A stretch of 63,364 nt of DNA from an uncultured Clostridia bacterium (GTDB lineage: Bacteria; Bacillota; Clostridia; Christensenellales; UBA1242). Positions 34,501 through 46,862 of this stretch are shown here, in pieces; the stretch's first letter is position 1, and every line of letters begins with the position of its first letter. Under the pieces are notes generated by a model. That model had not been told where the DNA came from and ran no database searches. It was given only the letters and a program-made list of their open reading frames with translations. The stretch spans positions 66,422 to 129,785 of the forward strand of contig CALVJJ010000001.1 in NCBI GenBank assembly GCA_944332185.1, in the 5' to 3' direction. A program made the position numbers and the translations under genes.

Positions 34501-37228
34501 TATTTAATTTGACTTGATACCCAGTAGCTGTAATACCATAACTAGTCAAATCTCCAGTAGACCAAGTTAATTTTCCTTGTGCCATAGCAAGTTGTGGAGT
34601 GTTTAATTTGTAAAACTCTTTTGCTTGTGTTTGTACTGATGTCAAATATCCTATTCCAGATGTAACACTGTTGCCTATTGCATACACGGTGGCCAAATAT
34701 GCACCAGATTCTGCTACTTGAATCGTATAAGTGTTGGCAGATACTTGTTGGGTGTATTTGACTTCATGATTTTGAGAGATAGTCACTTGATATGCTGTAG
34801 CACCTGTGACAGTATCCCAAGATAATGACACGACATTATCTTTTTTTGTCATAGACACAGCATTCATGCCTAAAAGTGTAATTTTCATTGCTGGACTATA
34901 TGCGCTACTTAATTTCCCATTTTGTTTGACTCTGACAGCAACTTCATAAGGTGTTTGCATTGTCAAATACGATCTAATATCCACTGTGATATCTTCTGTT
35001 GTAATGACTGTAGCCAAGGCTTGATCTTGATAGATGGCTAGTTCATAAGTAGCTTCTTCTAGTATTCCACTTTGCTCATTTTCTACAATGACAAGTTCGC
35101 CATTTACCGTTTTGACACCTTCTGGAGTATACAACATAGCAAAACTATATTCTGTCCCTTTACTCATGACAGTATTATAATTATTACCCCAAGCATAGAT
35201 GGTAATAGTATTTTGCCCTGCTACTGCATGACGTGGTGCATATTGTGTTTGATTTCCAATGTAATAATACTGCGCATTTTGTGATTCTTTGATGATATAC
35301 CCAGTGGACTTTGCCACACTAGAGAACGAAATGGTCTGTGTATCATCATGGAATTCTATATCTTCAAAATCTGTATTTGGTAATACTTCGAATGTAAAAC
35401 CGTAAGTCGTTGTATCTTGAAAATCTACTGTACTAGAGATGACAGCATTTTCCCCATTGGCTTGTACCCATACATGATAGATCGCTGGATCCATCACAAA
35501 ACCAAATGTGTAATTTGTATCAGTTGTTGTAGCCACTCTAGTTGCTTGTTCACTGCCTTTTTGCAGGTAAATGGTATAACTCGTAGCATTTTGAACAGCT
35601 TCCCATTCTACGGTTGGATTCACCCAATCCGTGATGATCTCTAGATTATCACTTTCTGGTACTGTTGTTTTTGTGCCTTGGTTGGTTACACAGGTAATAG
35701 TGGCATTATTGAGTTTTTCAATTTCGATTCCATCTATTAGTAATTTGTTACTATTGACTAGATTCAATCCGGTATTTTCTTTTGCAATCACTCGAATGGC
35801 AATGTGATATAGACCTGCATTTTCAATAATCAGTCCTACTTGACTACTGTTGCCTGTGACGATACTTGAGTAGGAATCAATTTCATTTTCATAATAGATT
35901 TGGTATTCTTCTACTCCAATCACACTTTCAAATGTCAAAAGATTGCCCGTTAGTTTTACACTAGATGGATTGATAGATCCGATCTTGGTAAAGGAAAGTA
36001 CTTCACTGATAGTTCCATCAATGGTATTATCTTCCCCATGTGCCATTACTTGTAAATGATACTCCCCTGCATTCAATTCTTCAGGGATTTTGTATTCATT
36101 CACATAGACATCTTCTTGTTTTACTTCTAGTCCATCTGTGGTTGTGATTTTGACCGTATAATAGGTCGCATATTCTACGGTATCCCAACGAATGATTGAC
36201 TGATCTTGTCCATTGTGAATGGTAAAATTCGCAACTTGAGAAAGTGGATAAATTGTCAAAGAATGGGACCACTCACTTTCCAAATACACATATTTTGTAT
36301 CTGTTGATGGGTGAATAGCTTTGACTCGAATAGAGTACTCATCATAAGAAGGAAATTCTTCTAATAAAGCATACGTTATTTCTTCTTCTCCATTACTAGG
36401 AATAGTTACTATCGTCGTAGTTGGTTGTCCATGATCTAGGTAGGTAATTTCTACTTGATAAGCATTGGCTCTAGCAACTGGATCAAAATAAATGACACCA
36501 TCTTCTTGACGAATATCTGTCACTGTTTCCAATGCTGTAAAGTATAACTCTTGTGAATAACTACCATCTGCTGTTGTGGTACCATTACCATTTGCTTTGA
36601 CTTTTACTGTATATTCATGTCCTATTGTAAAATCTACCACTTGGTATCGTACGATATTTTGATAAGTTGGATCATAATAGACAGTAATAGGATCCAAAGT
36701 TTCTGCATTGTCAGTCATCACCAATGTGTAATTCTTGGCATCATCGATCTTATCCCATATCACATATCCATCTTCATAGACTAGATGTGTTGGAGTAGGT
36801 AAAATGGTAGGATCTACTACTTGGAAAGTAAAGGTATCTGATCGAACAGGTAGACTTTTTGTCTCAATATGTACAGTCACTTCTCCACGATTGACAGCAT
36901 GAATCAACACACTACCCATGACTCCGTTTTGTGTTGTTTCCACAATTTCTGCTGCATCAGCAATTCCTGTAAAAAATACATTCACATCATTTTGTGTGGA
37001 AGTACCTGGTCGAATTTGGTAATCTATCTTAATGGTAGAACCGACATAGACAAAATTTTCACCATCAACAACATAATCTCCAATGGAATCTTTGTTGTTG
37101 ATCGTCAGTGAAATAGGCGTGGTCACAATGGTTGGTGTATCATTCTTACTAGAACAACTGCACCCCCCTAAAATAGCTACACAAAAGATAGCAAAATACA
37201 TTAAAATTAAAGATGTTTTCCTTTTCAT
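28535..37228 (-). CDS. Giant (2897 aa) surface lipoprotein with many FN3-like repeats and a C-terminal GLUG-like beta-solenoid
   Basis: Lipobox LGGC; more than 20 repeats of type L..P......G.L.W..V..A..Y.V...Y...V.A.G....S..S; GSGSQKDPYIISTAEQF followed by GGLV..N / AGIV..N repeats. Confidence 0.85.
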   Translation of the reverse strand: MKRKTSLILMYFAIFCVAILGGCSCSSKNDTPTIVTTPISLTINNKDSIGDYVVDGENFVYVGSTIKIDYQIRPGTSTQNDVNVFFTGIADAAEIVETTQNGVMGSVLIHAVNRGEVTVHIETKSLPVRSDTFTFQVVDPTILPTPTHLVYEDGYVIWDKIDDAKNYTLVMTDNAETLDPITVYYDPTYQNIVRYQVVDFTIGHEYTVKVKANGNGTTTADGSYSQELYFTALETVTDIRQEDGVIYFDPVARANAYQVEITYLDHGQPTTTIVTIPSNGEEEITYALLEEFPSYDEYSIRVKAIHPSTDTKYVYLESEWSHSLTIYPLSQVANFTIHNGQDQSIIRWDTVEYATYYTVKITTTDGLEVKQEDVYVNEYKIPEELNAGEYHLQVMAHGEDNTIDGTISEVLSFTKIGSINPSSVKLTGNLLTFESVIGVEEYQIYYENEIDSYSSIVTGNSSQVGLIIENAGLYHIAIRVIAKENTGLNLVNSNKLLIDGIEIEKLNNATITCVTNQGTKTTVPESDNLEIITDWVNPTVEWEAVQNATSYTIYLQKGSEQATRVATTTDTNYTFGFVMDPAIYHVWVQANGENAVISSTVDFQDTTTYGFTFEVLPNTDFEDIEFHDDTQTISFSSVAKSTGYIIKESQNAQYYYIGNQTQYAPRHAVAGQNTITIYAWGNNYNTVMSKGTEYSFAMLYTPEGVKTVNGELVIVENEQSGILEEATYELAIYQDQALATVITTEDITVDIRSYLTMQTPYEVAVRVKQNGKLSSAYSPAMKITLLGMNAVSMTKKDNVVSLSWDTVTGATAYQVTISQNHEVKYTQQVSANTYTIQVAESGAYLATVYAIGNSVTSGIGYLTSVQTQAKEFYKLNTPQLAMAQGKLTWSTGDLTSYGITATGYQVKLNTGKLETVSGLSYYADLDAGKYTATVTAIGDDVNIISSEDSIALEFDKLAVGSLTLQNGVLQIVDSQIEGVSYNIYHVVKSDTGVMYETIQAGIKDSSTNIGSMLVAGKTYQLIVEVTHDDYMTSNKNKTAFEVEKLPSPTQFRIQNNQFLWETVEHATGYAIDASNTMEYHQDLDALTLSTALPVLPNAGEFDFSLTAIGDSVRYVSSAPTATSTYQLSGVSNVRVEDGILVYDYVDRQQPVRFELELVQGETRTTLDNKLQKSFAFKDTDQQKYVGNYQVTITVIGDGSSTISSTQKETIAVTKLSTATNLIVGKKASVISGVIQGVLQWKAPSNATPTTKYILYLNGAPILLEEAKDAETVQRVGYEFYEEDGVLYYSGNQFVAEQQNHIAIACYDEETGNIITSETTVDAVIQGMQAPQNLAVVLNDQTNTATLTWNAVNGATSYMIYEVVSQEGNEDPTLTLIAQTEENQYYMVNTDIEGTTHQYVVLAVGSDQVSLTDGAIGYWTSAISTPISYTTLGQITGLQVSNGILTWDLGNATKFMIKMYDYEEGIDTSYTQKDALKVIDNMYETTYELEELGQGGKYFIALYPLGDGKTVLSNDIPATITVTKLSPLQNVRVINGILTWDLPFATINSMMQYQNMEGEIQPFDYQAGVELANLVKKYHGGQMTPQETTYFNSLAQLVYFELGAANLGMNGSSVGIFAYQKLVVSTIVSDDENQKLILSYDDMIYNSQTSIMRASGYYQIKLRSLGNTGDTEAQYDLFVNANYPSSLMTVYRSIAPQSIATGEGDTYISSYIHNETIIFKKVPFIQQGEEEVTTLDTTYVVEYGSYDMNMAITYQEYIVPQKNLSGQYGEVNVRELLNATSPINQGKDFYIRVRVLGTEDSTAVDPDETIILRSGVGTSSKTQILTEAIPFVKDGELMWGTGAVSNALQYEVHVYKITSKDDVIGQQEADIVRIYDSKIITYEDLDVDFAEHQFGAGWYAFKVRALGDGTAFLNGEWSPEVKVYRLPEILQGGNTIDLDYGDFVWTPNWVDAVVTSPTAAKAMVYQSAEQNGGYTTDKEYSIVSSQLGEQSRLAIGDQYLQYVDGLLQYYKIAIANMVEDDEQPTEDNFAYLRSSYTTMDTGYSRLSAPTGLRIENGKITWDGTGNQFEVMVNGTILEEKVFGKTFSLDANYKAGSYEIKLRNLADSITQQLSSVFSNSITVTKLNAPDLRLEQGKIVWNTSSVGFEEVGEIAVEILQGNLAIFKQSYTGTTTNLDLNTITLGNGEYLQPNVVYTITVQFKSVLGNTTYVDGEIARMNFTILQHVTLSTDDADTSAGNFIKWNSIDHALGYKVYVYVPNTDGVYEYDSEYIVYVDQVDQQKDFEYDPEQNVWKFSIANIQQSVYRIYVEAMGSTISADQNTQDHLYASSLLIDEDSYMDIELPQTPVVDVQSLQQNGKIVWTNKTTTAYPVLEYSYMRNGETISSGPIVLAKSATTYYLPTIAQQYTVKIYAMNDLGVMSLPFDFTANYSIYASGSGSQKDPYIISTAEQFLAIRERNTISYESVDGTVALHYYFQLSDNITLSNSYTKMEKLDGVILGNGKTLTIPNTYTESLFGTITKDGSVTNLVITKNNNISKSTYRLIADTNNGTIDGLSLTISGTYTVNNLAFVAGTNTGTISNISVVANALTVMPASTSNELHVFMITEWNQGTIVNITLSGSLTTYTGTSGEIIVAGVAYTNDKTIKHVVNTMNMTNNTNESQSISYASKLAGIVYENKQLVEQCGVEGVLSGSNIAGIIYQNYAQLNTSYFTGSIRAVQVTKDSNNSVSPIYVGGLVVNNLNRYLGADMDPRISNSYVLINSDNLVLDSNVSSLTENFAYVGGLVTYNNSAVAVSSASIVNCYVVIHDITSTNNRYQFGQIAYSSNAKQNGYSIFNNVYYYSNCQNQTLIKTYESSEITMSNNTLSLTGVTVYTDLSQMTGLTLEFVASSDHVKLKWQA

Positions 37229-37705: not shown

Positions 37706-37737
37706 AAAAAATCAAGCAAAATAATGCTTGATTTTTT
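37706..37737 (-). terminator. Intrinsic terminator after 1996-aa gene
   Basis: AAAAATCAAGCA/TGCTTGATTTTT. Confidence 0.8.
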
Positions 37738-40700
37738 ATAGATCTGCACCCCATGTTGCATATAGTGTCATATCACTTGTTACAACTATTTCCGTAAGCA
37801 CGGTATAGTCTTTGTTTTGTATGTTAGATATCAACACATTGCTAGCACCGGTCGTATTCCAAGTCACAACACGCATATCATAACTATCTGTAATCCATAC
37901 ACATTGATAGGTATAGGTACAATAACTTGTATATAAAGATGGATCAATCGTATCCCCTTCTAACACATAAATATTTTCTACTGTGTTTGGTGCTTTCACA
38001 CAAGTAATTTTTCCTTGGAATGCACTATTTTTATCTATCCATGCTGAAGGTTTTACCCAACCTAAATTAAAGGATACCACATACCAATTTTTACGTTCTT
38101 CTTCTACAACAGAAACAATATTTCTATCTGTATTGCTCATCACAAAATTGGTAAGGTACTGACCATTTTCTTGGTACCCTAAGAAATGGTAAATCATGCG
38201 ATATGCTAATTTTCCACCCTCTTGATAGTCAATACTATACTCTACCTGTTCTGGTAATTGAAAGGTTTCTCCTTGGTACAAATCAAGTGTTTTTGTATAT
38301 TGTGTATGCTGTTGATCTACCTTTTCATAATATGTATAAGTTACTCTATAACGATTGCGAATATGTAACACAAGATCTTGATCAGGCATAGTATCCTGAT
38401 ACGTTGTGGCTTGTGTGTATTCTGCATCTAGATACCATTTGGTAAATTTATCAATTTTGATCCTATCTGGCAACGAGATCACATCTCCTACTTTCCATAA
38501 CCCTTGATACACAATTTCATTTTGGTCTAGAATGGTCAAAGATCTTTCTTTGACAATACTTAAAACTTCCCATTGTGCATAGATCGTAAGATCGTGGCTT
38601 GGCATCATACCTGTAAATTCTTCACGATATTCTGGATCTACATACCACCCTAAGAAATGGTATGTAATGGTCGTACCATCTGTATTCTCTACGATCGTAT
38701 TCCATGATGGAAGTGATACAGTATCTTGTTCATAACACTGCATAGCTGGTAATGATTCCCCATGATCTGTAACAAATTGCAAGGTATAAGAAGTTTGAGT
38801 ATAGGTGGTAATGAATCTAGCATACAAATTTTGACTTACAGAAGGTATTAAGGTGATTTTATCTCCATTTTGATCTGCCCAACAATCAAATGTTTGAAAT
38901 AGTTTTTGATTGCCTTGAATAAGAATACGATCTTGTAAATAATTTTCTTTGATAGCAGTTCCGACCAATCCATAGTACTGATCTATGAGTTGGTCATCTA
39001 CATAGTAGAATATAGTACGATATGCCTCTTTCTCTACCCATTTTGCATATAGAGTTAGGTCCCCTCTGGTGATCACCGTTTTTGTATATTTTTCACCTTC
39101 AAAAGTTGGTGTTGTATACCAGCCATCAAAAGTATAGATAGTCTTATCTGTATCCGTTTCAACCACTTTATTTGGTAAAGTTGGCAAAGTATAGACAGTA
39201 TCAATAGCTCCTGTCACATTTTCAACTTCTTGCCCACCGTTTTCTTCAAAACTTACCGTATAGACAGTGGCACTAGCAAGTGTCCAATTCCCATTACTTG
39301 CGTGCCAATATTCGTCTACTTTATATGGATAACTATTGATATAATTTTCCATTTCTGCAAAATCAATTTCTTGCCCAATAGTATTTAGCGTAAGATCAGT
39401 ACTTGTAATATCTACCTTAAATGCACTAGAGATTGGCATATGTACTTCCAATGCCCCTTGCACAATGTACTCTTTTTGATCTACTGGACTCGTGGTAAGA
39501 CGAATGGTCATGGTATCTAAGTCACTATTGTTGGCTAACTCTGCAAGATTTAAGATCAATTCATAGGTGTTATCAGTCTTACCAAAACCTAGTAAAATAT
39601 TACTCATATCTAATGGAGTCGTTCGGTTCATAGCTTTATCGACTGCTACTTGAATCTCGTCCATGATAATGTCTTGGAATCCACAACCATAACTTAATAG
39701 CATCATAGGATCAGCCAAAAATTCTTCCAAAGTCATTTTTAATTTTTTCTCATATTTTCTATCAGAACTTGCAAATCTAGGAATATTTTCACTTCGATAA
39801 AAATACACATAGCCATCTGCAAAATATACTTTCAAGATTCTATCTTTTCCACAATTCACACCACTAATGGTATCACCAAAAACATAAGGAACATCATTAT
39901 CAATTGGTGCAATGACTGGAATTGGTCCAACAGTTAGCATGATTTCTGGTTTTTGATCACGCAGACGAATTGCAAGATCAACTGGTACACTCATAGAGAT
40001 GGCATCACTTAAACTCAAAACTTCCATGGTAATATCTAAAGTAGCTGTGATATGGAAATATTGCAAACTTGATGTATCTATAAAAGCTTTGACTAATGGT
40101 GCACAATCAGACAAATCCATATATTGTTCTTTATCTGGTAATTGTTGCACTCCTTGAAATTCATTGACAAAGATAGACAAATCGAATTTTTCAGTTGGTG
40201 TCACCCCTGAATAAAAGTCTTTAATTATAATACCACTTAATGCATGGTCATTGGTAATGATATCAATGGTGACATCTTGACTATTTTCCACCCCACTTAA
40301 TTTTGAACCATATAATGTAATGGTCAAAATGGAATCATGAAAACTTACCTTTTTAATATAGGTTAGTAGCATCAGTGGTTGTGTTGGATCAAACGATGGA
40401 ATCAGTTGTTGCAAATTCTCTAGATCTAGTTGCATATCTTGTGCGACATCTTGTAAGAAATCTAATTTTGAAGTATCAATACCCAAAACACTAGCGAGTA
40501 TATACGCTAATTCCTTGAGACAATCTTGTGACATTTTGACTTTTAATTTGTTGTAATTGACATACAGCATTTTGTCTTCATAAGCAAGATTAAATTCCAT
40601 ATCTTGCAATCCAGTCAGTTTTGCCTCGCCGAACAATGCAAAAGTGTTTTGCCAATCCATTTCTAATTGACAGTTGGCAACATATTGAATACTATTTTCT

Positions 40701-43700
40701 TCATAAACTGTTGCATTAGCAGACACACTGACTTGTTTTGTTTCTATGATACCCATGATACTGTCAATAAGTTGTGTGAGCATCGTATAATGTTGGAATT
40801 GTGTAGGATCAACTTCAATCATCACTGGCGACCATACTACCCCTGCTTTGATAGAAAGTTGTGGAGCAGATAGTTGTACTTGCCAACTTTCTTGTCTACT
40901 AAGTGTAAGCATAAACTGATCCAAGAAAGATAAGGAGATAGTATTATTCTTCGTTGTGATACTATCTAGACTATCTAAAGATAGATCACTGGTATAGACA
41001 CTAGGCAACTTAAAATCTGTACCAAAACGAGCATTGATCCACTCCAACAGCATTGGAATTTCGTCCAATCCCATTGCAATACGAAGCCCTGCTACTGTCA
41101 TATATACTGTCGCATGATCCAAGATTGCTTCTATATCTAATCCATAAAATTGTGTGACTACTTTTGCTTTTAAGTTTTCAATATCACTTAGACTTTTCAT
41201 TTGACGAGCATCTAGTTCAAAATCTACTTGCACTTCTAGATCTTGATACTGAATATCTAATGTGCCTTTTGCTTGTTTTTCTTGATAGAATTGTGCAAAA
41301 TCTTGTACGAATGGCAACACATCTTCTACCTGTACAGTAGATGGTAATGGAGTAATACTTGGTTGTTTTCCCCAATCTATCTGTATGGTAACATCAGCCA
41401 CTCCGTGATAGCTGATACTTTCCAATCCTTGTGCAGAATAGACAAGACGGATTTCCTGTCCCATGGCACTACCAGATAAACTATACTGATATTTTTCTTG
41501 TTGTAATTGTAGACTATCTATTGTAAGAGTTTGCAAAAATTGTACAATTTGATCAGTAGATATAGATAATTGTGGCAATACTATTTCCCCATTAGGTAGA
41601 TATGTTTCTAGTACTTTTTGAATATCTTCCACTGGGAGATGATAGTCATTAGATAGAATATCGAATAATTGTGTAAGAGTAGTGATCTTGGTGGATACGA
41701 CTATGTTGTTGATAGATAACGTAAGGAGTCCATTCTGCAACACGACACCTAGTTGATATCCTTGCATGGTAGTATGAATTTCTACATTTAGACCATTACG
41801 AAGATCTAAGGCAATATCGAATAGGTATGTATGGTCTTGTAGACATAGTTCTACTTGCCCTACTACTGTTTTTTGATCTATCACAGTCATTATATGTTGT
41901 GCTAGAATATCTATACTTTCCAAAGATAGATAAGCTTCTTTTTCTACCGTTGGTATTGTCATTGGTTGAAGATTTACTACAGCATGGATCTTGTCTAGAT
42001 AAGATACAGCAATGGTGGACAAAGATTGACTGTCTCTTGCGATATTAAGTTGTAGTCCTTGATACGATAATTGGAATTGTGTATCATTCCATACTATGAT
42101 ATGTAAACTATCTAAAATAGACAAAATATCCAATGTAGCAAAGTCAATTTTGTCAATAGATACCGTAGGTAATTCTATCTTCATTCCATATTTTGCTAGA
42201 TAAGATTGCACTTCTTTCCATGTAGTTTTGATATACACTCCATCTAGATGTAGATAGACAACTTCTTCTTGATACCATATCTCTATTGGTTGCCCAAATA
42301 GTGTAGTAGAAATATATAGTTGGATTCCTGCATTCCAATCTACCATCATATTCCCTGATACAGTAATATCTTGATAAGTTGCAGAGAATTGTCCTGCAAT
42401 TTGTTTTTCTTCCATGATATCCATGATAGTATCAAGATAAGAAACTACTGTTGTAATGGAAGTAAACGATCCTTGTGGTTGTTGAATAGGTGTATTCCAT
42501 GTCTCAAAGCCAATATGAATATGATGAGATTGCCATTGCCAGTCAATATCGTTTAATTTTCCATCTGCATCGCTTTGCAAAAGAATTGTTCCATAGTGTG
42601 CCAACGTGATCTTAATTCCACCATCTATTTGTTCAATGTTTTGAATGATCTCTTGAATAGCAAGAGTATCTAGCGAGATGGTAGGTAGGACAAGTTGTGG
42701 AAAATATGTTTGCATTATTTTTTGGATTTCTTCTATGGTAGCTTCTATATGTATGGATCCAATACTTACATAGATATGATCCTCTACCACGATGATTTCC
42801 ACAGTTTTACCATTGATTGTCCCCCGGAATTGCAAAGCAAACCCATTATCTGTTGTGATGGCTATAGATCCATCAATCATATATCCAAACAGCTCTCCTT
42901 CAAAGCAGAATTGGAAAGCATCATATCCTTGATATCCCAACAACATAGATATTAGATGATACGCATTACTAATATCCAAATAGGTATCTTGCTTGACAGC
43001 TGGTATGCTAAAATCTTCTGCATTGCATACCATATCGACATCTAACGAGAAGGTAATACCTGCAATAGTCGTTGGTTCTATGATGACTTTTTCCATGGTA
43101 TAAGTTTCATCTAGTAAGATGGTTGCATGGATCAAATCTTCTACCAAAAATTCTAATTGGTATCCTCCTTCTCTTTCACTGGTGTGTACATATTGCAATA
43201 AGGAAGTCAAACTGCTGATATCTAATTCCTCTAAATTCCCTAATCCTAATGCATCTAAAAAAGACAAATCTAAATTGTTGATATAAGGTTTTAAGATAGA
43301 CAAAAGTGGTTGCAAACTATCTAGTAAATGAGAAGTATTGATCTTGATATTTTGACCAAGTAAAGATAGATAAGCTGTCGATTCTTCATAATGTAAATAG
43401 ATTGGCAGTTGTTGATCTTGATAGACAACAAAAAGATTCGCATCTACTTTTAGCGTAGGTGTCACTTGTAATAACACATTCCCTGTTAAATCTATGGTTG
43501 TGCCCTGATATTCGCCACGAATGTGAATAGTAAGATTCATATTCTTGGTTGCAAGAGTTTTAGACACCATTCCATCTAGAATAGGATCGCTCGTATCTGT
43601 TTCTCCTCCTGCCAATAATCCATAACTATCCGAATCACCAGAGACTTTATATACCATAACCATCGTTCCTGCCGAAGCTAAGAATACGATGAGAAAAACC

Positions 43701-43726
43701 ATAAGGTATTGTAATAATCTTTTCAT
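37736..43726 (-). CDS. Large (1996 aa) N-anchored surface protein with seven ~180-aa repeats and C-terminal InlB B-repeat (Listeria-Bacteroides) domains
   Basis: N-terminal TM; repeated I.I.Y....VYL...G..IK motif; YTVSFEENGG..YTFDGWY..LTLYAKW type repeats from ~39262 to the end. Confidence 0.85.
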   Translation of the reverse strand: MKRLLQYLMVFLIVFLASAGTMVMVYKVSGDSDSYGLLAGGETDTSDPILDGMVSKTLATKNMNLTIHIRGEYQGTTIDLTGNVLLQVTPTLKVDANLFVVYQDQQLPIYLHYEESTAYLSLLGQNIKINTSHLLDSLQPLLSILKPYINNLDLSFLDALGLGNLEELDISSLTSLLQYVHTSEREGGYQLEFLVEDLIHATILLDETYTMEKVIIEPTTIAGITFSLDVDMVCNAEDFSIPAVKQDTYLDISNAYHLISMLLGYQGYDAFQFCFEGELFGYMIDGSIAITTDNGFALQFRGTINGKTVEIIVVEDHIYVSIGSIHIEATIEEIQKIMQTYFPQLVLPTISLDTLAIQEIIQNIEQIDGGIKITLAHYGTILLQSDADGKLNDIDWQWQSHHIHIGFETWNTPIQQPQGSFTSITTVVSYLDTIMDIMEEKQIAGQFSATYQDITVSGNMMVDWNAGIQLYISTTLFGQPIEIWYQEEVVYLHLDGVYIKTTWKEVQSYLAKYGMKIELPTVSIDKIDFATLDILSILDSLHIIVWNDTQFQLSYQGLQLNIARDSQSLSTIAVSYLDKIHAVVNLQPMTIPTVEKEAYLSLESIDILAQHIMTVIDQKTVVGQVELCLQDHTYLFDIALDLRNGLNVEIHTTMQGYQLGVVLQNGLLTLSINNIVVSTKITTLTQLFDILSNDYHLPVEDIQKVLETYLPNGEIVLPQLSISTDQIVQFLQTLTIDSLQLQQEKYQYSLSGSAMGQEIRLVYSAQGLESISYHGVADVTIQIDWGKQPSITPLPSTVQVEDVLPFVQDFAQFYQEKQAKGTLDIQYQDLEVQVDFELDARQMKSLSDIENLKAKVVTQFYGLDIEAILDHATVYMTVAGLRIAMGLDEIPMLLEWINARFGTDFKLPSVYTSDLSLDSLDSITTKNNTISLSFLDQFMLTLSRQESWQVQLSAPQLSIKAGVVWSPVMIEVDPTQFQHYTMLTQLIDSIMGIIETKQVSVSANATVYEENSIQYVANCQLEMDWQNTFALFGEAKLTGLQDMEFNLAYEDKMLYVNYNKLKVKMSQDCLKELAYILASVLGIDTSKLDFLQDVAQDMQLDLENLQQLIPSFDPTQPLMLLTYIKKVSFHDSILTITLYGSKLSGVENSQDVTIDIITNDHALSGIIIKDFYSGVTPTEKFDLSIFVNEFQGVQQLPDKEQYMDLSDCAPLVKAFIDTSSLQYFHITATLDITMEVLSLSDAISMSVPVDLAIRLRDQKPEIMLTVGPIPVIAPIDNDVPYVFGDTISGVNCGKDRILKVYFADGYVYFYRSENIPRFASSDRKYEKKLKMTLEEFLADPMMLLSYGCGFQDIIMDEIQVAVDKAMNRTTPLDMSNILLGFGKTDNTYELILNLAELANNSDLDTMTIRLTTSPVDQKEYIVQGALEVHMPISSAFKVDITSTDLTLNTIGQEIDFAEMENYINSYPYKVDEYWHASNGNWTLASATVYTVSFEENGGQEVENVTGAIDTVYTLPTLPNKVVETDTDKTIYTFDGWYTTPTFEGEKYTKTVITRGDLTLYAKWVEKEAYRTIFYYVDDQLIDQYYGLVGTAIKENYLQDRILIQGNQKLFQTFDCWADQNGDKITLIPSVSQNLYARFITTYTQTSYTLQFVTDHGESLPAMQCYEQDTVSLPSWNTIVENTDGTTITYHFLGWYVDPEYREEFTGMMPSHDLTIYAQWEVLSIVKERSLTILDQNEIVYQGLWKVGDVISLPDRIKIDKFTKWYLDAEYTQATTYQDTMPDQDLVLHIRNRYRVTYTYYEKVDQQHTQYTKTLDLYQGETFQLPEQVEYSIDYQEGGKLAYRMIYHFLGYQENGQYLTNFVMSNTDRNIVSVVEEERKNWYVVSFNLGWVKPSAWIDKNSAFQGKITCVKAPNTVENIYVLEGDTIDPSLYTSYCTYTYQCVWITDSYDMRVVTWNTTGASNVLISNIQNKDYTVLTEIVVTSDMTLYATWGADL

Positions 43727-43736
43727 GTTCTCCCTT

Positions 43737-44711
43737 CTATAACAAAGTTACATTGTCATACTCAAACTGCATCAGCAAACTGCCACCACAAGTCACAGTC
43801 ATACCGTATGTTACTTTGTATTCTTCTTTAATTGTAATGGACAAAAATCTTCCATTTTGATCCACTGAAAATTGCACGGTCACATAATTAAATTTTGGGG
43901 AATCTAATCCACTCATTTTGCTCATTTGTTTGACATAATTGATAACGGAAGCTTGTGGGTGTAAGGAAATTTCACATTGATATACCCCTTCCACAAGATT
44001 CTTTGTCCCTTTACCTATGACTGTTCTAGTTCCCACAACATAAGGAATGACACCCGTTGGGCTAGTTCCCCATTGTTGTTTGTATTCTTCTGCACTTACC
44101 TTTTCTTCTGCGCCATTCCATGTTGCAGCCCCATCATTTTCTGGTTTCCCTGACTGCACAATGACATCACTATTTACAGTATAATGCATTTGATAGGCTA
44201 CATTTTTAATGCCTTTACTAATTTGGTTGTTGTAATACTGATCACCTTGTTTTTGAAATGTAGACCAAACCAACTGATCTGTCAGCGGATTGGTGACCTT
44301 CCCACTCGCATTCATTTGGTATTGATACTCTTGTGACAGTTTGTATTCTCCCACTACAAATATTTCTGCTGGAGTCAAAGAAGCAATATTCTTTTTTAGC
44401 AAACTTGGAATATTATCTCCTGCCCGTAACGATGTTTCATCATACATAGAATAATCCACTTTTGATAAAAATGCTTCTACAATATAATTCCCCACAAATA
44501 TTCCACTAAAGCAGCCCATCACAGCAAAGACACAGATGTTCAGCCAAAATCTTTTTTTTGTGATTTCTTTTTTTCTTTTTTTCTTCTTTTTTGTTTTACT
44601 TTCTTTTTCTTGAATAGATTGCAGTTGTTGTTTTTTATCATCTTCGATCAGCAAGGTCTGTGTCTCGACCGTTGTCGAAGTATCTTTTATATTTTTTTTC
44701 TTTTGTTTCAT
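43737..44711 (-). CDS. Membrane-anchored protein with beta-rich (LolA/LppX-like?) ectodomain
   Basis: Lys-rich N-terminus, one TM, alternating beta strands (VTVQFSVDQNGRFLSITIKEEY...FEYDNVTL); fold call is inference. Confidence 0.7.
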   Translation of the reverse strand: MKQKKKNIKDTSTTVETQTLLIEDDKKQQLQSIQEKESKTKKKKKRKKEITKKRFWLNICVFAVMGCFSGIFVGNYIVEAFLSKVDYSMYDETSLRAGDNIPSLLKKNIASLTPAEIFVVGEYKLSQEYQYQMNASGKVTNPLTDQLVWSTFQKQGDQYYNNQISKGIKNVAYQMHYTVNSDVIVQSGKPENDGAATWNGAEEKVSAEEYKQQWGTSPTGVIPYVVGTRTVIGKGTKNLVEGVYQCEISLHPQASVINYVKQMSKMSGLDSPKFNYVTVQFSVDQNGRFLSITIKEEYKVTYGMTVTCGGSLLMQFEYDNVTLL

Positions 44712-45442
44712 ACGTTACCCATCTCAACTTTTTTCATGGTTTGATAGACAAATCGAAACGAAAATCCAGTAATTTTCACAATTTGTCTAATACTAGCCCC
44801 ATATAAAGAGACCATTCTTTGAATCAGTTTTTTCTTTTTCTCTACATTCATAGACTGTATTGTTTCTGCTTGACTATCTAAAAATGCCTTGACTAATTGT
44901 GCTAATTCTACTTCAGTATATTTTTTCCCGATTTTACGCATCAGTTGTAAAACCTCTGGTTGTTGTGCTTGTAAAAACAAAGATTGTTCTATGGAAGGAG
45001 TCATCACTAGATAAGGTCTGCCTGTTTTATCTTGTAGATACCCATCTTCATTATAATGATATTTACTACAAAATTTGGTTTCTTCTTGCAAATAGTGAAG
45101 ACTAGCTATCATTTGGTACACTTCTGTCACCGTATGGGCACTGTAACTTGTAAAACGATCTTTAAAGATCTCCCCTTTTCTATGATGTTGTTTGTTGTAA
45201 GAATAGACAAAACGAATACAAATACTTTTCATGAGTTCGCTCATTTGGTCGCTTTGGACCACAAAACGAAAACAAGTATCTGCCAAATGGTAGGCAAAAA
45301 TTTTGCTATTCATCTGCCATACATAATGTTGTACCACATCTAATAGCATGGTTTTATCTGCATCATCTAGCATAATATCTTGCGTCTTTAAAACCACTAA
45401 ATAGGTATGAATTTCACTGGTTGATCTTGCCACTCTTGCCAT
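44708..45442 (-). CDS. RAYT/IS200-like (Y1) transposase homologue with catalytic motifs lost, plus C-terminal HTH
   Basis: MARVAR start, KIFAY.L, YNKQHHRKGEIFKDRF.S match the RAYT pattern; HUH reads CFR, catalytic Y.H.NP reads SLHYL; GASIRQIVKITGFS HTH. Confidence 0.8.
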   Translation of the reverse strand: MARVARSTSEIHTYLVVLKTQDIMLDDADKTMLLDVVQHYVWQMNSKIFAYHLADTCFRFVVQSDQMSELMKSICIRFVYSYNKQHHRKGEIFKDRFTSYSAHTVTEVYQMIASLHYLQEETKFCSKYHYNEDGYLQDKTGRPYLVMTPSIEQSLFLQAQQPEVLQLMRKIGKKYTEVELAQLVKAFLDSQAETIQSMNVEKKKKLIQRMVSLYGASIRQIVKITGFSFRFVYQTMKKVEMGNV

Positions 45443-45474
45443 AATCTTTCCTTCCTTTTTTAAAAAACCAAGTA

Positions 45475-45503
45475 AGTATACCAAATTTTACAATACTTGT
45501 CAA
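45475..45503 (-). promoter_or_regulatory. Near-consensus SigA promoter for the RAYT-like operon
   Basis: TTGACA-17 nt-TATACT with extended -10 TG. Confidence 0.8.
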
Positions 45504-45574
45504 ACATTAGTGTCCCTTTTGTTACATTTTTATGATTTTACCTTCTTGTCCTATGCTAAAAATAGCAAAAAAAT

Positions 45575-45604
45575 AAAAAACAGTCTTTCCAACTGTCTTT
45601 TTTT
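45575..45604 (-). terminator. Intrinsic terminator after dinB
   Basis: ACAGT/ACTGT stem followed by long U-tract on minus strand. Confidence 0.55.
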
Positions 45605-45620
45605 AAGTGTTTTATGTTTT

Positions 45621-46862
45621 TTATTTGTGTAATACAGTAGGGTGAACCACATGTCCCCCTTCTTCCATATTGATCGCATCAAAATCTGCATCTTTCATAA
45701 TGCTAGCCTGCTTAATAATGTGATGTCCATATTTTTTGCGTAACACTGTGACAACTTGCTCAAGTTTTTGACGTTTTTCCACTTGTTGTATATCATCAAA
45801 AATACTATACTGTTTTGGTTTTGGTGTTAATTTGAGAGCCCGTACACCTAAAGCTCTGACCGTATGCTCCCACGTATAATGTTGTTGAAACAATTCCAAT
45901 GCCCCTTCATGCAAATCTTTTGCCAAATCTGTTGGCATAAAGAATTGTTTTTGCCTATCAAAAGAGGCTAACGTATTATCTTTGACCCATAGTTGCACTT
46001 CTTTTGCATAAACGCCTTCTTTATTCATTCGTTTTGCAACATTTTCTGCCAGCAAATACAAAATATGAGACACTTCTTCTATAGTTTTTAGATCACGTGG
46101 ACAAGTGGTAGAATTGCCAATGCTTTTCATCTCTTCCCTGTACCCAGTTTTTCTCACTTCTCCATCATCTAATCCACAAGCAAATTTATACAACATGACA
46201 CCGTTTTTCCCAAGCAAAGTATGTAACAATTTTTCTTCTGTTTTTGCCAAATCTTCAATGGTTTTGATACACATTTTTTGCAATTTTTGATATGTGGCAC
46301 GACCAACATAAAGGAGCTGATCTACCGACAATGGCCATACTTTTTCTTTAAAATTATCTGGAGTAATGACTGTCACAGCATTTGGTTTTTTTAGATCACT
46401 GCCTAGTTTTGCAAATACTTTATTATAACTGACTCCAATGCTCACCGTGAGTCCTGTCTCTTGCAACACACGAACACGTATGGTATGAGCGAGTTGTTCT
46501 GCTTCTTGAAAAGAATGAACACTTTGGGTAATATCTATCCACGCTTCATCAATTCCAAATGACTCCACTCTATCAGAGTATTGTCTATAAATATCTTTGA
46601 CAATTCTAGATAGTCTTTGGTACCTGTCAAAATGTACCGGAACACAAACTAAATCTTGCCCACAACATTGTGTAGCTTCCCATACCGTAAAGCCTGTTTT
46701 TACCCCTTTCTTTTTCGCTATTTGATTTTTGGACAAAACCACACCATGTCTTTTTTCTACATCACCTACCACAACCATTGGTTTGTTGCGAATAGAAGGA
46801 TCGTAGAGACATTCACAACTAGCATAAAAATTATTTAGATCAGAATGTAAAATATATCTCAT
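45621..46862 (-). CDS. dinB: Y-family DNA polymerase IV
   Basis: ILHSDLNNFYASCE, SFGIDEAWID, SIGVSYNKVFAKLGSDLKKP; start ATG 46862. Confidence 0.92.
   Translation of the reverse strand: MRYILHSDLNNFYASCECLYDPSIRNKPMVVVGDVEKRHGVVLSKNQIAKKKGVKTGFTVWEATQCCGQDLVCVPVHFDRYQRLSRIVKDIYRQYSDRVESFGIDEAWIDITQSVHSFQEAEQLAHTIRVRVLQETGLTVSIGVSYNKVFAKLGSDLKKPNAVTVITPDNFKEKVWPLSVDQLLYVGRATYQKLQKMCIKTIEDLAKTEEKLLHTLLGKNGVMLYKFACGLDDGEVRKTGYREEMKSIGNSTTCPRDLKTIEEVSHILYLLAENVAKRMNKEGVYAKEVQLWVKDNTLASFDRQKQFFMPTDLAKDLHEGALELFQQHYTWEHTVRALGVRALKLTPKPKQYSIFDDIQQVEKRQKLEQVVTVLRKKYGHHIIKQASIMKDADFDAINMEEGGHVVHPTVLHK

Follow-up and report, generated by a model that had tools for sequence, protein, structure and literature searches.

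P0001, a 244-amino-acid protein encoded on the reverse strand of the 63,364-nucleotide stretch of DNA analyzed here (the window), has the fold of a Y1 transposase and none of its catalytic residues, and its gene heads a three-gene operon whose promoter is preceded by a box homologous to the left terminal inverted repeat (TIR) of catalytically intact relatives. We consider it probable, with a likelihood of roughly 60%, that P0001 is an exapted, sequence-specific DNA-binding regulator that uses this fossil transposon end as its operator. The initial annotation had suggested that P0001 regulates the downstream surface proteins. This now appears much more plausible because the TIR-derived box is unique in the genome, phase-locked to the promoter, and strictly co-occurs with the gene. 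The features of the operon are as follows:

45571..45600, reverse strand: terminator-like hairpin and T-run closing the upstream dinB-like gene (identified by eye)
45507..45527, reverse strand: conserved box ATGTAACAAAAGGGACACTAA, candidate operator and left-TIR fossil (cross-genome conservation)
45475..45503, reverse strand: sigma-70-type promoter, TTGACA, 17 nt, extended -10 TGgTATACT (promoter scan; orthologous layout)
45446..45455, reverse strand: ribosome-binding site GGAAGGAAAG (read from the sequence)
44708..45442, reverse strand: first gene, catalytically dead Y1-transposase-like plus HTH coding sequence (P0001, 244 amino acids; stop TGA overlaps the ATG of the next gene)
45083..45442, reverse strand: Y1 (HUH-fold) domain, residues ~1 to 120 (AF2 model, pLDDT 82.3)
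45266..45274, reverse strand: C-F-R, codons 57 to 59, replacing the HUH metal-binding motif (MAFFT alignment; hhalign)
45086..45103, reverse strand: S-L-H-Y-L-Q, codons 114 to 119, replacing Y-I-H-x-N-P (MAFFT alignment)
44723..44845, reverse strand: predicted C-terminal helix-turn-helix (HTH), residues ~200 to 240 (sub-threshold Pfam, hhalign, model)
43737..44711, reverse strand: second gene, 324 amino acids, with a Lys-rich N terminus, one transmembrane helix, and an extracytoplasmic domain (no known family)
37736..43726, reverse strand: third gene, 1996 amino acids, with a signal/anchor at the N terminus and Listeria-Bacteroides repeats at the C terminus (Flg_new, E 6.3e-21)
37706..37737, reverse strand: intrinsic terminator, 13-bp stem and T-run, closing the three-gene operon (terminator scan)

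The open frame on the reverse strand (44708..45484) begins with a TTG at 45484, which was rejected as the start codon because it overlaps the -10 hexamer. The real start is therefore the ATG at 45442, which follows the ribosome-binding site at 45455-45446, and the N termini of orthologues begin with an identical M-A/P-R start in the alignment. The initial annotation had described an intact open reading frame, a ribosome-binding site, a near-consensus promoter, and an ATGA overlap with the next gene, and each was confirmed, with the frame full length from the ATG and the overlap at 44711-44708. The -35 hexamer TTGACA lies at 45503-45498 and the -10 hexamer at 45480-45475, with a score of 11/12 and an extended TG. 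A promoter match is not significant alone, with 50 promoter-like sites in the window versus 49.2 expected; the position is supported by the arrangement of box, -35, and -10, which is repeated in orthologous loci. The terminator-like hairpin ends the upstream dinB-like gene, and thus the operon has its own start; this hairpin was not flagged by the terminator scan, which demands three G-C pairs. Searches of positions 45300-45700 against Rfam gave no match near any gathering score, and an Atlas search with the 324-amino-acid protein returned only unnamed Bacillota clusters.

A Y1 transposase fold without its catalytic residues

The RAYT-like scaffold proposed in the initial annotation was recovered by profile homology and by structure but not by the Pfam Y1_Tnp HMM (PF01797), which did not match P0001 even at E <= 1, nor by NCBIfam. 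No family was assigned by Pfam, NCBIfam, PHROGs, or PADLOC, and a PDB sequence search with the P0001 profile returned chance matches only. In the AF2 model the Y1 domain has strands at residues 13-20, 47-53, 57-63, and 93-102 and helices at 27-43, 67-86, and 105-116. Foldseek placed this model at E values of 1e-4 to 1e-3 from IS608, ISDra2, IS200, and RAYT chains; there were 25 matches at E <= 1e-3, and the 19 entries listed among ranks 1 to 24 were all chains of these types. The VIA-align matches at ranks 1 to 16 had Z scores of 10.1 to 13.6 to Y1 transposases, compared with no more than 8.4 for generic ferredoxin-like folds. The comparison with TnpA-REP that the initial annotation had suggested aligned 142 residues of 4er8_A with a Z of 12.1.

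Profile comparisons gave the same picture. A profile built from 8 orthologues found 866 proteins at E <= 1e-3 (hmmsearch) and reached proteins that score 1e-8 to 1e-19 on PF01797. Among 55 relatives found with this profile, Y1_Tnp was above the Pfam cut-off in 34, below it in 2, and unmatched in 19, and these 19 are the dead clade. Alignment of the dead clade with the active clade by hhalign gave a probability of 100 and an E value of 5.3e-41 over 235 columns that include the HTH, and an N-terminal M-A/P-R-x-A-R-x-x-S motif and an F-x-D-R-F-x-S strand are common to both. The scaffold of P0001 belongs to the Y1/RAYT class, and its nearest active kin are HTH-bearing, TIR-flanked relatives of the TIRYT/subclass 2.1 kind, not REP-associated RAYTs proper.

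The residues required for Y1 catalysis are replaced in P0001, as the initial annotation had read from the sequence. The HUH region reads AYHLADTCFRF (45295-45263) and the nucleophile region SLHYLQ (45103-45086), each a few bases from where it had been placed. When 157 relatives were aligned with MAFFT, C57-F58-R59 fell in the columns of H-u-H, E91 in that of the GHLFQ His, His116 in that of the Y-I-H His, and L118 and Q119 in those of N-P, while Ser114 occupies the column of the catalytic Tyr; at the HUH site, hhalign paired the dead-clade 'f~fVi' with 'NHvHLLiK'. Both His residues and the Tyr are missing from 31 of the 157 sequences. Another 27 sequences are partial, and in many of these Phe replaces the Tyr although HUH is retained. 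In an unrooted tree from a quick search, 24 of these 31, P0001 included, formed a single clade (SH-aLRT 98) and 6 more a neighboring clade (98), and both clades trace to genomes with identical synteny. Across the dead clade the alignment contained no conserved polar residue at the three catalytic positions. The nearby Tyr of SLHY, which the initial annotation had raised as a possible alternative nucleophile, is Tyr117, three residues past the catalytic column; it is kept in only 9 of the 31 fully dead sequences and therefore does not serve the clade as a substitute nucleophile.

For the C-terminal HTH of the initial annotation, the structure models predict a three-helix HTH, and all Pfam matches to residues 201-238 were sub-threshold (HTH_58, E 0.018; HTH_23, 0.087; HTH_28, 0.14). 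Structural matches to the C-terminal model were generic HTHs only, and the best VIA Z of 6.3 (LsrR) is 'middling' on the tool's own scale; KorB (6.0), DnaA domain IV (5.5), and a SETMAR-TIR complex (5.3) followed. The longest matches, over 67 to 72 residues, were to DnaA domain IV (Z 5.0 to 5.5) and are likewise generic. Foldseek with the C-terminal domain alone found nothing below an E value of 1.4. Within the predicted helix 2, an S-x-RQI-x-R-x-T motif is common to the dead and active clades, with S217-x-R219-Q220 invariant and T225 nearly so.

Distribution, synteny, and selection

Among 200 other genomes from the same Clostridia family, 21 carry the dead-type gene, and they span 10 genera. 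A 22nd match, in genome G060, was left out of the dead-clade counts because the gene, which is intact, and its end are both of the active type. The same membrane-protein gene lies directly downstream on the same strand in 21/21 of the genomes with the dead gene, although these genomes are related rather than independent and may stand for few events. A giant open reading frame (1653 to 2714 amino acids) came next in 5/5 loci that were extended further, and the outer flanks differ. The pair of membrane-protein and giant-protein genes is present in 113 of the 200 family genomes and the dead gene in only 21. Therefore, the operon does not need P0001, and the dead gene is an accessory add-on to the pair. 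A search for related loci with a narrow orthologue alignment found one locus, on a contig of the same genus.

The initial annotation had described a domesticated gene rather than a decaying or mobile one and had noted no flanking REP palindromes and no tnpB. This reading was supported. P0001 is encoded by a single-copy gene in a genome of 962 kb that is 97% complete, in which there was no other PF01797 domain and no TnpB domain (PF07282). No REP or TIR pair flanks the gene; the only inverted repeats at the locus are A/T rich and of low identity. Protein identity among orthologues falls to ~25%, with no frameshift across the 21 genomes and with core residues Y51, F93, and R96 conserved. The dN/dS analysis that the initial annotation had suggested gave 0.07 to 0.2 overall, 0.068 to 0.12 for the closest pairs, and no more than 0.29 for all pairs of finite dS, with dS above 1.3 (saturated) in every interspecies pair. 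The frame is full length in each of the nine sequence variants that make up the 90% cluster. Contigs from three other studies had no stops or indels in the gene and no single-nucleotide polymorphisms (SNPs) in the box or promoter. Within the species there were 5 synonymous and 6 nonsynonymous changes, a pN/pS of roughly 0.4 from small numbers; the nonsynonymous set includes R59H, seen on one contig at a depth of 4.4.

A promoter box descended from a transposon end

A box of ~17 bp, TGTWRCAAAAGGGACAC, was found upstream of the -35 in 22/22 loci in constant orientation, with 17 exact pattern matches and 5 variants that have a substitution or a 1-nt indel. The gap from GGGAC to TTGAC is 8 to 9 nt in 7 loci and 17 to 19 nt in 12, and TTGAC is lacking in the other 3; the two spacings differ by 10 bp. 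Within the window, 8 nt separate the end of GGGAC from the -35. A second box lies downstream of the -10 in two genera. The only exact match in the organism's own genome is at 45507..45527, and in 5/5 other genomes matches with at most one mismatch were confined to the locus, whereas a reversed-pattern control gave 0. The box was absent from 6/6 membrane-protein/giant-protein loci that lack the dead gene. With up to two mismatches, there was 1 match in the window versus 0.96 expected, which is not significant alone, and 20 in the genome versus 14 for the control. The case for the box therefore rests on its conservation across genomes. Two further single-mismatch matches occur in the genome. One was rejected because it falls within a coding frame; the other, on a different contig, is intergenic. 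Box-like sequences ~630 nt upstream in two genomes (G193 and G118) were attributed to chance because they are the reverse strand of M-K-C-P-Y-C-N codons in a divergent gene.

A sample of 300 genomes from across the class Clostridia contained active relatives in 98, with up to 9 copies per genome. Within the family of P0001, an active-type copy was found in 1 of 200 genomes (G060) and in none of 6 in the class sample. The GGGAC motif lies upstream of 22 of 25 active relatives, and an inverted copy within 120 nt downstream of 19 of the 25, mostly 14 to 24 nt past the stop. The consensus of the active ends is caaGGGGACGGtTCT.Ttg. These ends are inverted hairpins whose GGGGACGGTTCT loop is conserved, the left one overlapping the -35 of the gene. 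Perfect flanking stems of at least 4 bp were found at 21/22 active ends (mean 5.9 bp; shuffled, ~2) versus 6/22 dead-locus rows (mean 2.8 bp), one of these six being the active-type G060. Homology is shown directly by comparison of the box CAAGGGGACGCTTCTTG in genome G102 with the active CAAGGGGACGGTTCTGTTG. Active ends do not contain the TGTTGC that makes up the 5' half of the box, and the dead-type loci have a left copy only, with no inverted copy within 1.5 kb. The box is homologous to the left TIR of the catalytically intact relatives in other Clostridia, and the dead clade no longer has the right end or the arms of the hairpin. Boxes of the variant TGTAAC pair with the helix-3 variant FR(F/L)VY in 3/3 loci, and TGTTGC-type boxes with PLR.LW-type helices in the remaining loci; this pairing probably represents one evolutionary event.

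Proposed regulation, alternatives, and relation to known systems

These comparisons suggest that the ancestor of P0001 was an HTH-bearing Y1 transposase of the TIRYT/TnpA-REP subclass 2.1 kind. One copy would have inserted ahead of a pre-existing pair of membrane-protein and giant-surface-protein genes in one family of gut Clostridia with ~1-Mb genomes. It would then have shed its right end, the arms of its hairpin, the histidines of HUH, and the tyrosine, while retaining its fold and HTH, its promoter, and the left-end core. We infer that the HTH of P0001 binds the double-stranded box, and that P0001 is probably dimeric through its Y1 domain, like Y1 transposases. With the box 8 to 9 or 17 to 19 bp upstream of the -35, bound P0001 would govern how often the three-gene operon is initiated, and because the operon includes the gene for P0001 itself, an autoregulatory loop would result. 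We lean slightly toward negative autoregulation because the promoter is near consensus, the ancestral end overlaps the -35, and a second box lies past the -10 in two genera; the 10-bp phasing fits activation equally well.

It is possible, though unlikely, that the Y1 domain rather than the HTH is the working part, binding single-stranded DNA or an RNA or DNA hairpin as TnpA and RAYTs do, and acting after initiation or on intermediates of replication or repair. The Y1 fold is well preserved, active relatives have the same N-terminal motif and F-x-D-R-F-x-S strand, and in this genus a DinB-type polymerase gene lies upstream. However, that neighbor is limited to one genus, the box is upstream of the -35 and hence outside the transcript, and the leader has no Rfam family match. 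The shortening of the stems from a mean of 5.9 to 2.8 bp, with the loop core and a new 5' half fixed, also argues against recognition of a hairpin. Transposition immunity, in which P0001 would be a dominant-negative end-binding fragment that blocks invading active TIRYT elements and its link to the surface operon would be incidental, is rather improbable. Active-type copies are rare in the family and common elsewhere (1/200 and 0/6 versus 98/300), and the core of the box is the conserved loop of the active ends. Yet most genomes of the family have neither the dead gene nor active copies, and rarity thus needs no protection. The fixed position with a stop/start overlap with the membrane-protein gene in 21/21 genomes points instead to a local promoter role, as does the 10-bp phasing of box and -35, and the TGTTGC half does not occur in active ends.

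P0001 could be functionless if a strong promoter was all that the insertion contributed and the frame is kept by translational coupling or is slowly decaying. The near-consensus promoter, the ATGA stop/start overlap, and the within-species ratio of 5 synonymous to 6 nonsynonymous SNPs are compatible with this view, which we nevertheless judge very unlikely in light of a dN/dS of 0.07 to 0.2 at identities down to ~25%, the lack of frameshifts in 21 genomes, the invariant S, R, and Q of the HTH, the conserved Y51, F93, and R96, and full-length frames in 9/9 cluster variants. That P0001 is still an enzyme that cleaves and joins DNA through other residues, for example Tyr117 with Cys57, Arg59, and His116, is extremely improbable. 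Tyr117 lies on the same helix as the nucleophile position, three residues past it, His116 matches the His of Y-I-H, and one strain contig has a His at position 59; but Tyr117 occurs in just 9/31 dead sequences, the three catalytic positions have no conserved polar residue, there is neither a second end nor a hairpin substrate, and the gene occurs once, in a fixed position.

The proposal of an exapted regulator can be compared with several known systems. According to the available parts of the published descriptions, TIRYTs, or TnpA-REP subclass 2.1, have a class 2 Y1 core and a C-terminal HTH (HTH_23, HTH_28, or Bac_DnaA_C-like), are not associated with REPs, and are low in copy number; those described are flanked by a pair of TIRs, many with GGGGWSAS, and all conserve HuH and Y (PMC3733652, PMC6006769). 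The tree of Quentin et al. (2018) was, in the part available, limited to sequences with HuH and Y, and forms lacking HuH were left out (PMC6006769). The gene for P0001 resembles this group in its class 2 Y1 core, predicted C-terminal HTH, low copy number, and lack of REPs, and the window sequence AGGGACAC fits GGGGWSAS at 7/8 positions, with GGGGACAC at several orthologous loci. Unlike TIRYTs, it lacks HuH and Tyr, has one end only, and occupies a fixed position before two host genes. The intact Y1-plus-HTH genes of ~250 amino acids in other Clostridia share full-length homology, the left-end core beside a TTGAC -35, and the helix-2 motif with P0001, but they keep AYCLMxNHxHLL and RYIHQNP and have two hairpin ends, multiple copies, and varied neighborhoods.

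TnpA-REP of E. coli (RAYT, 4er8) and the TnpA proteins of IS608 and ISDra2 (2vju, 2a6o, 2xo6) have the same fold as P0001, with Z up to 13.6 for IS608 TnpA. In contrast to them, P0001, at ~10% identity, has no catalytic residues, no REP or subterminal hairpins, and an extra HTH. Its locus also differs from those of RAYTs proper in having no REP family and a box that is unique in the genome.

Some transposases control their own expression because the end they bind overlaps the promoter of their gene, an arrangement that provides a ready-made repressor/operator pair. Such proteins are still transposases, whereas P0001 would keep only the regulatory half and heads host genes. Many eukaryotic regulators are known to be exapted transposases, and TnpB has recently provided bacterial examples. 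TldRs are, as far as the available part of the source describes them, nuclease-dead, TnpB-derived, RNA-guided transcription factors encoded beside their targets (10.1101/2023.11.30.569447). P0001 is like TldRs in that an IS200/IS605-related nuclease has lost catalysis and is proposed to have been recruited to control adjoining host genes, and unlike them in that TldRs have the RuvC fold of TnpB and are guided by RNA, whereas P0001 would read DNA through its HTH, with a former transposon end as the operator. A literature search, a review included, found no case of an HUH Y1 transposase exapted as a regulator in the parts of the sources available, and papers on 'Huh' cell lines obscured some of its results. 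We consider the chances somewhat better than even that P0001 is the first nuclease-dead Y1 protein of the TnpA/TIRYT type to be recognized as a transcription factor, a TnpA counterpart of TldR with the fossil of its own left end as operator, in a feedback loop that would set or switch the giant surface protein in genome-reduced gut Clostridia.

The locus is an unusually complete record of such a transition, with two hairpin ends in the active relatives and one end, now a promoter box, in the dead clade. It provides a testable model for how a transposon end and an end-binding domain could become an operator/regulator pair, and it hints at the recognition target of the unexplained HTH in TIRYT-type proteins. 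The products of the downstream genes are a conserved membrane protein and a 2000-amino-acid surface protein of unassigned function, a pair that is widespread in the family, and P0001, if it is their regulator, offers a handle on an envelope system of uncultured Clostridia with ~1-Mb genomes. This family occurs in chicken-gut metagenomes.

Gene, promoter and operon

The minus-strand open frame at 44708-45484 begins at a TTG. This codon was rejected as the start because it sits on the -10 hexamer and the orthologues all begin M-A/P-R, the N terminus encoded from the ATG at 45442. The resulting product, P0001, is 244 aa long. The intact reading frame, near-consensus promoter, ribosome-binding site and ATGA overlap described in the initial annotation are all present in the window:

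45621-46862, minus: DinB/ImpB-type translesion polymerase gene (IMS, IMS_C; IMS E 5.7e-44), directly upstream
45503-45475, minus: promoter TTGACA-17-TGgTATACT (promoter scan)
45455-45446, minus: purine-rich ribosome-binding site
44711-44708, minus: ATGA stop/start overlap of the P0001 gene with the next gene
43737-44711, minus: 324-aa single-pass membrane protein, second cistron
37736-43726, minus: N-terminally anchored 1996-aa protein carrying Listeria-Bacteroides repeats (Flg_new E 6.3e-21)
37737-37706, minus: strong terminator closing the operon

A hairpin and T-run, read by eye, follow the DinB-type gene, a neighbor that among the loci compared was common only to the same-genus genome. The window's own genome comprises 962 kb in 20 contigs and is 97% complete, and near-identical DNA is present in chicken-gut metagenome runs from several studies. 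Directly past the operon terminator, after a gap of ~500 bp, lies a second giant open reading frame (2897 aa; 28535-37228, minus strand).

Relationship to Y1 transposases

The RAYT-like scaffold proposed for P0001 was not recovered by the PF01797 profile (no match in Pfam even at E ≤ 1) but was supported by profile-profile comparison. An NCBIfam search with P0001 yielded no family, and a PDB sequence search yielded no match. A profile built from eight orthologues that are 56-62% identical retrieved 866 proteins at E ≤ 1e-3 from a library of 1.84 billion. A Pfam scan of 55 of the 866 placed Y1_Tnp above the cut-off in 34 and below it in 2; the domain was absent in the other 19 (P0010-P0022, P0024-P0028, and P0035), which are the closest matches. 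When 26 dead sequences, in which both His and the Tyr of Y1 catalysis are replaced, were compared as a profile with 18 active sequences, in which the HUH motif and Tyr are intact, the match (probability 100, E 5.3e-41, 235 columns) spanned the N terminus through the C-terminal helix-turn-helix (HTH).

The AlphaFold model of P0001 (pLDDT 82.3, pTM 0.75) yielded 25 Foldseek matches at E ≤ 1e-3, and among the matches listed all were IS608, ISDra2, IS200, S. tokodaii or RAYT transposase chains. The same chains occupied VIA-align ranks 1 to 16 (Z 10.1-13.6), whereas generic ferredoxin-like folds reached a Z of at most 8.4. The structural alignment to E. coli TnpA-REP (4er8_A) suggested in the initial annotation gave a Z of 12.1 over 142 residues. 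Sequence profiles and the predicted structure thus indicate that P0001 is related to Y1 transposases, a relationship missed by standard tools but found by sensitive ones.

The predicted loss of the HUH and Tyr motifs was confirmed in an alignment of 157 relatives. Active relatives carry AYCLMxNHxHLL, GHLFQDRF and RYIHQNP; P0001 reads AYHLADTCFRFVV, GEIFKDRF and SLHYLQE. The H-u-H column corresponds to C57-F58-R59, the nucleophile Tyr column to S114, and the N-P columns to L118-Q119. Both His residues and the Tyr are needed for Y1 chemistry in IS608 TnpA and TnpA-REP, as restated in a portion of PMC6006769. It had been considered that the nearby Tyr of SLHY (Tyr117) might serve as the catalytic Tyr, with alternative metal ligands. 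This residue was found in just 9 of the 31 dead sequences and is absent from 22, and no conserved polar residue occupies any of the three catalytic positions across the dead clade. All of H, H and Y were present in 99 of the 157 relatives, some in 27 and none in 31, proportions that are biased because the sequences are the best-scoring matches of a search started from the dead profile. Many of the partial-loss relatives (for example, P0032, P0036, P0068, P0103, P0120, P0131, P0140, and P0155) keep the HUH motif and carry Phe where active relatives have the catalytic Tyr, so catalytic inactivation may be recurrent in this HTH-bearing family. One contig from run X7 carries R59H (CGT>CAT, window position 45267, codon 59), which restores a His to the second position of HUH and, at a depth of 4.4, may be an assembly error.

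Across 19 C-terminal sequences, S217, R219 and Q220 of the HTH never vary and A216 and R230 rarely do, and the motif S-x-RQI-x-R-x-T(G/S) is common to the dead and active clades. In the next helix, most dead genes have PLR(F/L/M)LW, the window's lineage has FR(F/L)VY and active genes have ISR..I. Modeled alone (pLDDT 81.4), the C-terminal domain had no Foldseek match below E 1.4; its VIA-align matches were middling and all to DNA-binding HTH domains, including LsrR (Z 6.3), KorB (Z 6.0), DnaA domain IV (Z 5.5, 67 residues) and SETMAR bound to a TIR (Z 5.3).

Distribution, neighborhood and selection

The initial view of a domesticated rather than mobile gene was consistent with its distribution. 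The dead gene is single copy in its own genome, which has no other PF01797 match (6 of 14 control genomes were positive) and no TnpB domain. Searches for flanking inverted repeats at the locus returned just A/T-rich noise, in line with the reported lack of palindromes and tnpB. A scan of 200 other genomes of the host's family gave 22 with a match at E ≤ 1e-8. The match in G060 was rejected as dead-type because the gene is intact, of the active type, and carries an active-type end, which leaves dead-type genes in 21 of the 200 genomes, across 10 genera, one gene each. Matches to the dead profile within the family ranged from E 1e-71 to 1e-87, apart from a gene split across two contig ends (G110, E 1e-39). 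The best match in 294 nonfamily genomes of the class was E 1.2e-48, and the matches there were HUH-intact loci; among the genomes searched, the dead clade is confined to the host's family. A quick tree, left unrooted, grouped 24 dead sequences, P0001 among them, in one clade (SH-aLRT 98) and 6 others in a neighboring clade (98), a topology with which a single origin is compatible. Both groups map to genomes sharing one gene order. The G060 gene (C2:101419-102120; locus L043), the sole intact active-type Y1+HTH gene in the 200 family genomes, has HUH and YIHNNP motifs and an active-type end, GGGGACGGAGG, and lies away from the membrane-protein gene.

Comparison of orthologous loci bore out the expected synteny. 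At five loci from four genera the dead gene precedes a membrane-protein gene (303-414 aa), which overlaps or adjoins it, and then an anchored-protein gene (1653-2714 aa); protein identity falls to ~25-30% and the outer flanks differ. Gene coordinates place the membrane-protein gene directly downstream of the dead gene in 21 of 21 dead-type genomes. The membrane-protein family occurs in 113 of 200 family genomes and, with the window's own genome counted, 44 of 58 genera. At six membrane-protein loci without the dead gene, the giant gene adjoins in five and another gene in one (L050), and none has a regulator homologue. Because the envelope pair is this widespread and is kept at loci without the dead gene, the pair is the older module, to which the dead gene has been added in a subset. 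The 324-aa protein had no Pfam, NCBIfam, PHROG or PADLOC match, and the Atlas returned just unnamed Bacillota clusters. In some genomes members of its family are fused into 1083-1616-aa proteins, with the giant anchored protein usually next.

Pseudogenization, considered initially as a possible objection, was not apparent. For the three closest pairs, Nei-Gojobori dN/dS was 0.068, 0.082 and 0.124; it was ≤0.29 for every pair with finite dS. These values are rough because dS is saturated (>1.3). Contigs from three other studies carried 11 coding SNPs (5 synonymous, 6 nonsynonymous), no stop or indel in the coding sequence, and no change in the box, described below, or the promoter. The 90% cluster has nine members, each 244 aa long.

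A promoter box and its putative role

Alignment of upstream regions revealed a motif, wTGTTGCAAAAGGGACAC (the box), whose window version is TGTAACAAAAGGGACAC at 45526-45510. It occurs in 22 of 22 dead-type loci, always on the coding strand and 50-190 nt ahead of the start codon; [AT][AG]CAA[AGT][AG]GGG[AG]C[AG] is matched exactly in 17 and the other 5 differ by substitutions or a 1-nt indel. A further box lies between the -10 and the ribosome-binding site in two genera (G007, G105), and two other genera (G155, G070) have two or three tandem upstream boxes. Counted from where GGGAC ends, the next TTGAC follows after 8-9 nt in 7 loci and after 17-19 nt in 12, classes one helical turn apart; three loci of one genus have another -35. 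In the window, the motif gave one match at ≤2 mismatches against 0.96 expected, which alone is not significant. The exact box occurs once in the window's own genome, and in five other genomes matches at ≤1 mismatch lay only at the dead-gene locus (reversed-pattern control, 0). No box was found at the six membrane-protein loci without the dead gene. Box-like sequences ~630 nt upstream of the gene in two genomes (L021, L030) were discarded as the antisense of M-K-C-P-Y-C-N codons in a zinc-ribbon-like gene transcribed divergently, an example of how coding sequence can give rise to the motif.

The box is visibly homologous to the ends of active relatives. Intact ~250-aa Y1+HTH genes occur in 98 of 300 class genomes at E ≤ 1e-20, often at 2-9 copies per genome, but in none of the six family genomes in that sample. 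Among 25 intact genes from 24 loci, GGGAC lies within 200 nt upstream in 22 (typically 62-65 nt ahead of the ATG), and an inverted copy lies within 120 nt past the stop in 19 (mostly 14-24 nt). The consensus is caaGGGGACGGtTCT.Ttg, and in 21 of 22 active loci the core is bordered by arms that pair perfectly over at least 4 bp (mean 5.9; shuffled flanks, ~2). The active end is thus a hairpin with a conserved loop and element-specific arms, the 3' arm running into the TTGAC -35. The active elements match the "TIRtron" layout and GGGGWSAS motif in portions of Di Nocera et al. (PMC3733652) and subclass 2.1 in portions of Quentin et al. (PMC6006769); both use the term TIRYT for these HTH-bearing, TIR-flanked relatives of RAYTs. 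At L052-L075, loci of other Clostridia, inverted hairpin ends flank intact genes, with stems that covary between elements, the left one reaching into the gene's own -35, and the loop GGGGACGGTTCT, a clear structural description of Clostridial TIRtrons not met in the portions of the TIRYT literature covered.

Dead-clade boxes read CAAGGGGACGCTTCTTG in G102 and GGGACACTTCTTG in many others. Their arms average 2.8 bp, and 6 of 22 rows, the active-type G060 among them, have arms of 4 bp or more; dead-type loci have no right-hand copy. The dead clade has also gained a conserved 5' half, TGTTGC or TGTAAC. That the arms were lost while the core was kept and extended argues that the HTH would now recognize duplex DNA, in place of a Y1 domain recognizing a single-stranded hairpin. 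TGTAAC pairs with the FR(F/L)VY helix in three of three loci and TGTTGC-type boxes with PLR.LW-type helices in the others, a pairing that is consistent with recognition of the box's 5' half by helix 3 and is probably one event because the three TGTAAC loci are each other's closest relatives.

As the simplest account, we propose that an element of the TIRYT type landed in front of the envelope pair in an ancestral member of the host's family. Its end-binding HTH and end-embedded promoter would have formed a ready protein/operator pair. Selection would have kept this pair and the fold of a presumably dimerizing P0001-type protein; Y1 transposases are obligate dimers. The nuclease residues, hairpin and right end would then have decayed. 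On this computational support, we assign a probability of about 0.6 to the dead Y1 protein being a regulator of its own operon. Control of the operon would form a feedback loop, because the putative regulator is its first cistron.

Exaptation of a transposase into a DNA-binding regulator is known, and the present case would be a variant, well supported computationally. No dead or exapted Y1/TnpA regulator was found in the literature searched. In the portions covered, a review on recruitment of mobile elements in prokaryotes names IS200/IS605 only for IscB and TnpB, and the tree of Quentin et al. (PMC6006769) was built only from sequences with HuH and Y. The closest conceptual precedent is TldR, nuclease-dead TnpB regulators (10.1101/2023.11.30.569447).

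If P0001 is a regulator, the near-consensus promoter, the ancestral overlap of end and -35, and the boxes past the -10 in two genera favor repression, whereas strict 10-bp phasing to the -35 is expected of an activator contacting RNA polymerase; we lean slightly toward repression. The sole intergenic near-match elsewhere in the window's own genome (C2:52933-52948, L014; TCTAGCAAAAGGGACA, 1 mismatch) is oriented the opposite way, a short distance downstream of one minus-strand gene and ~260 nt upstream of another, and could be a chance match or a second site.
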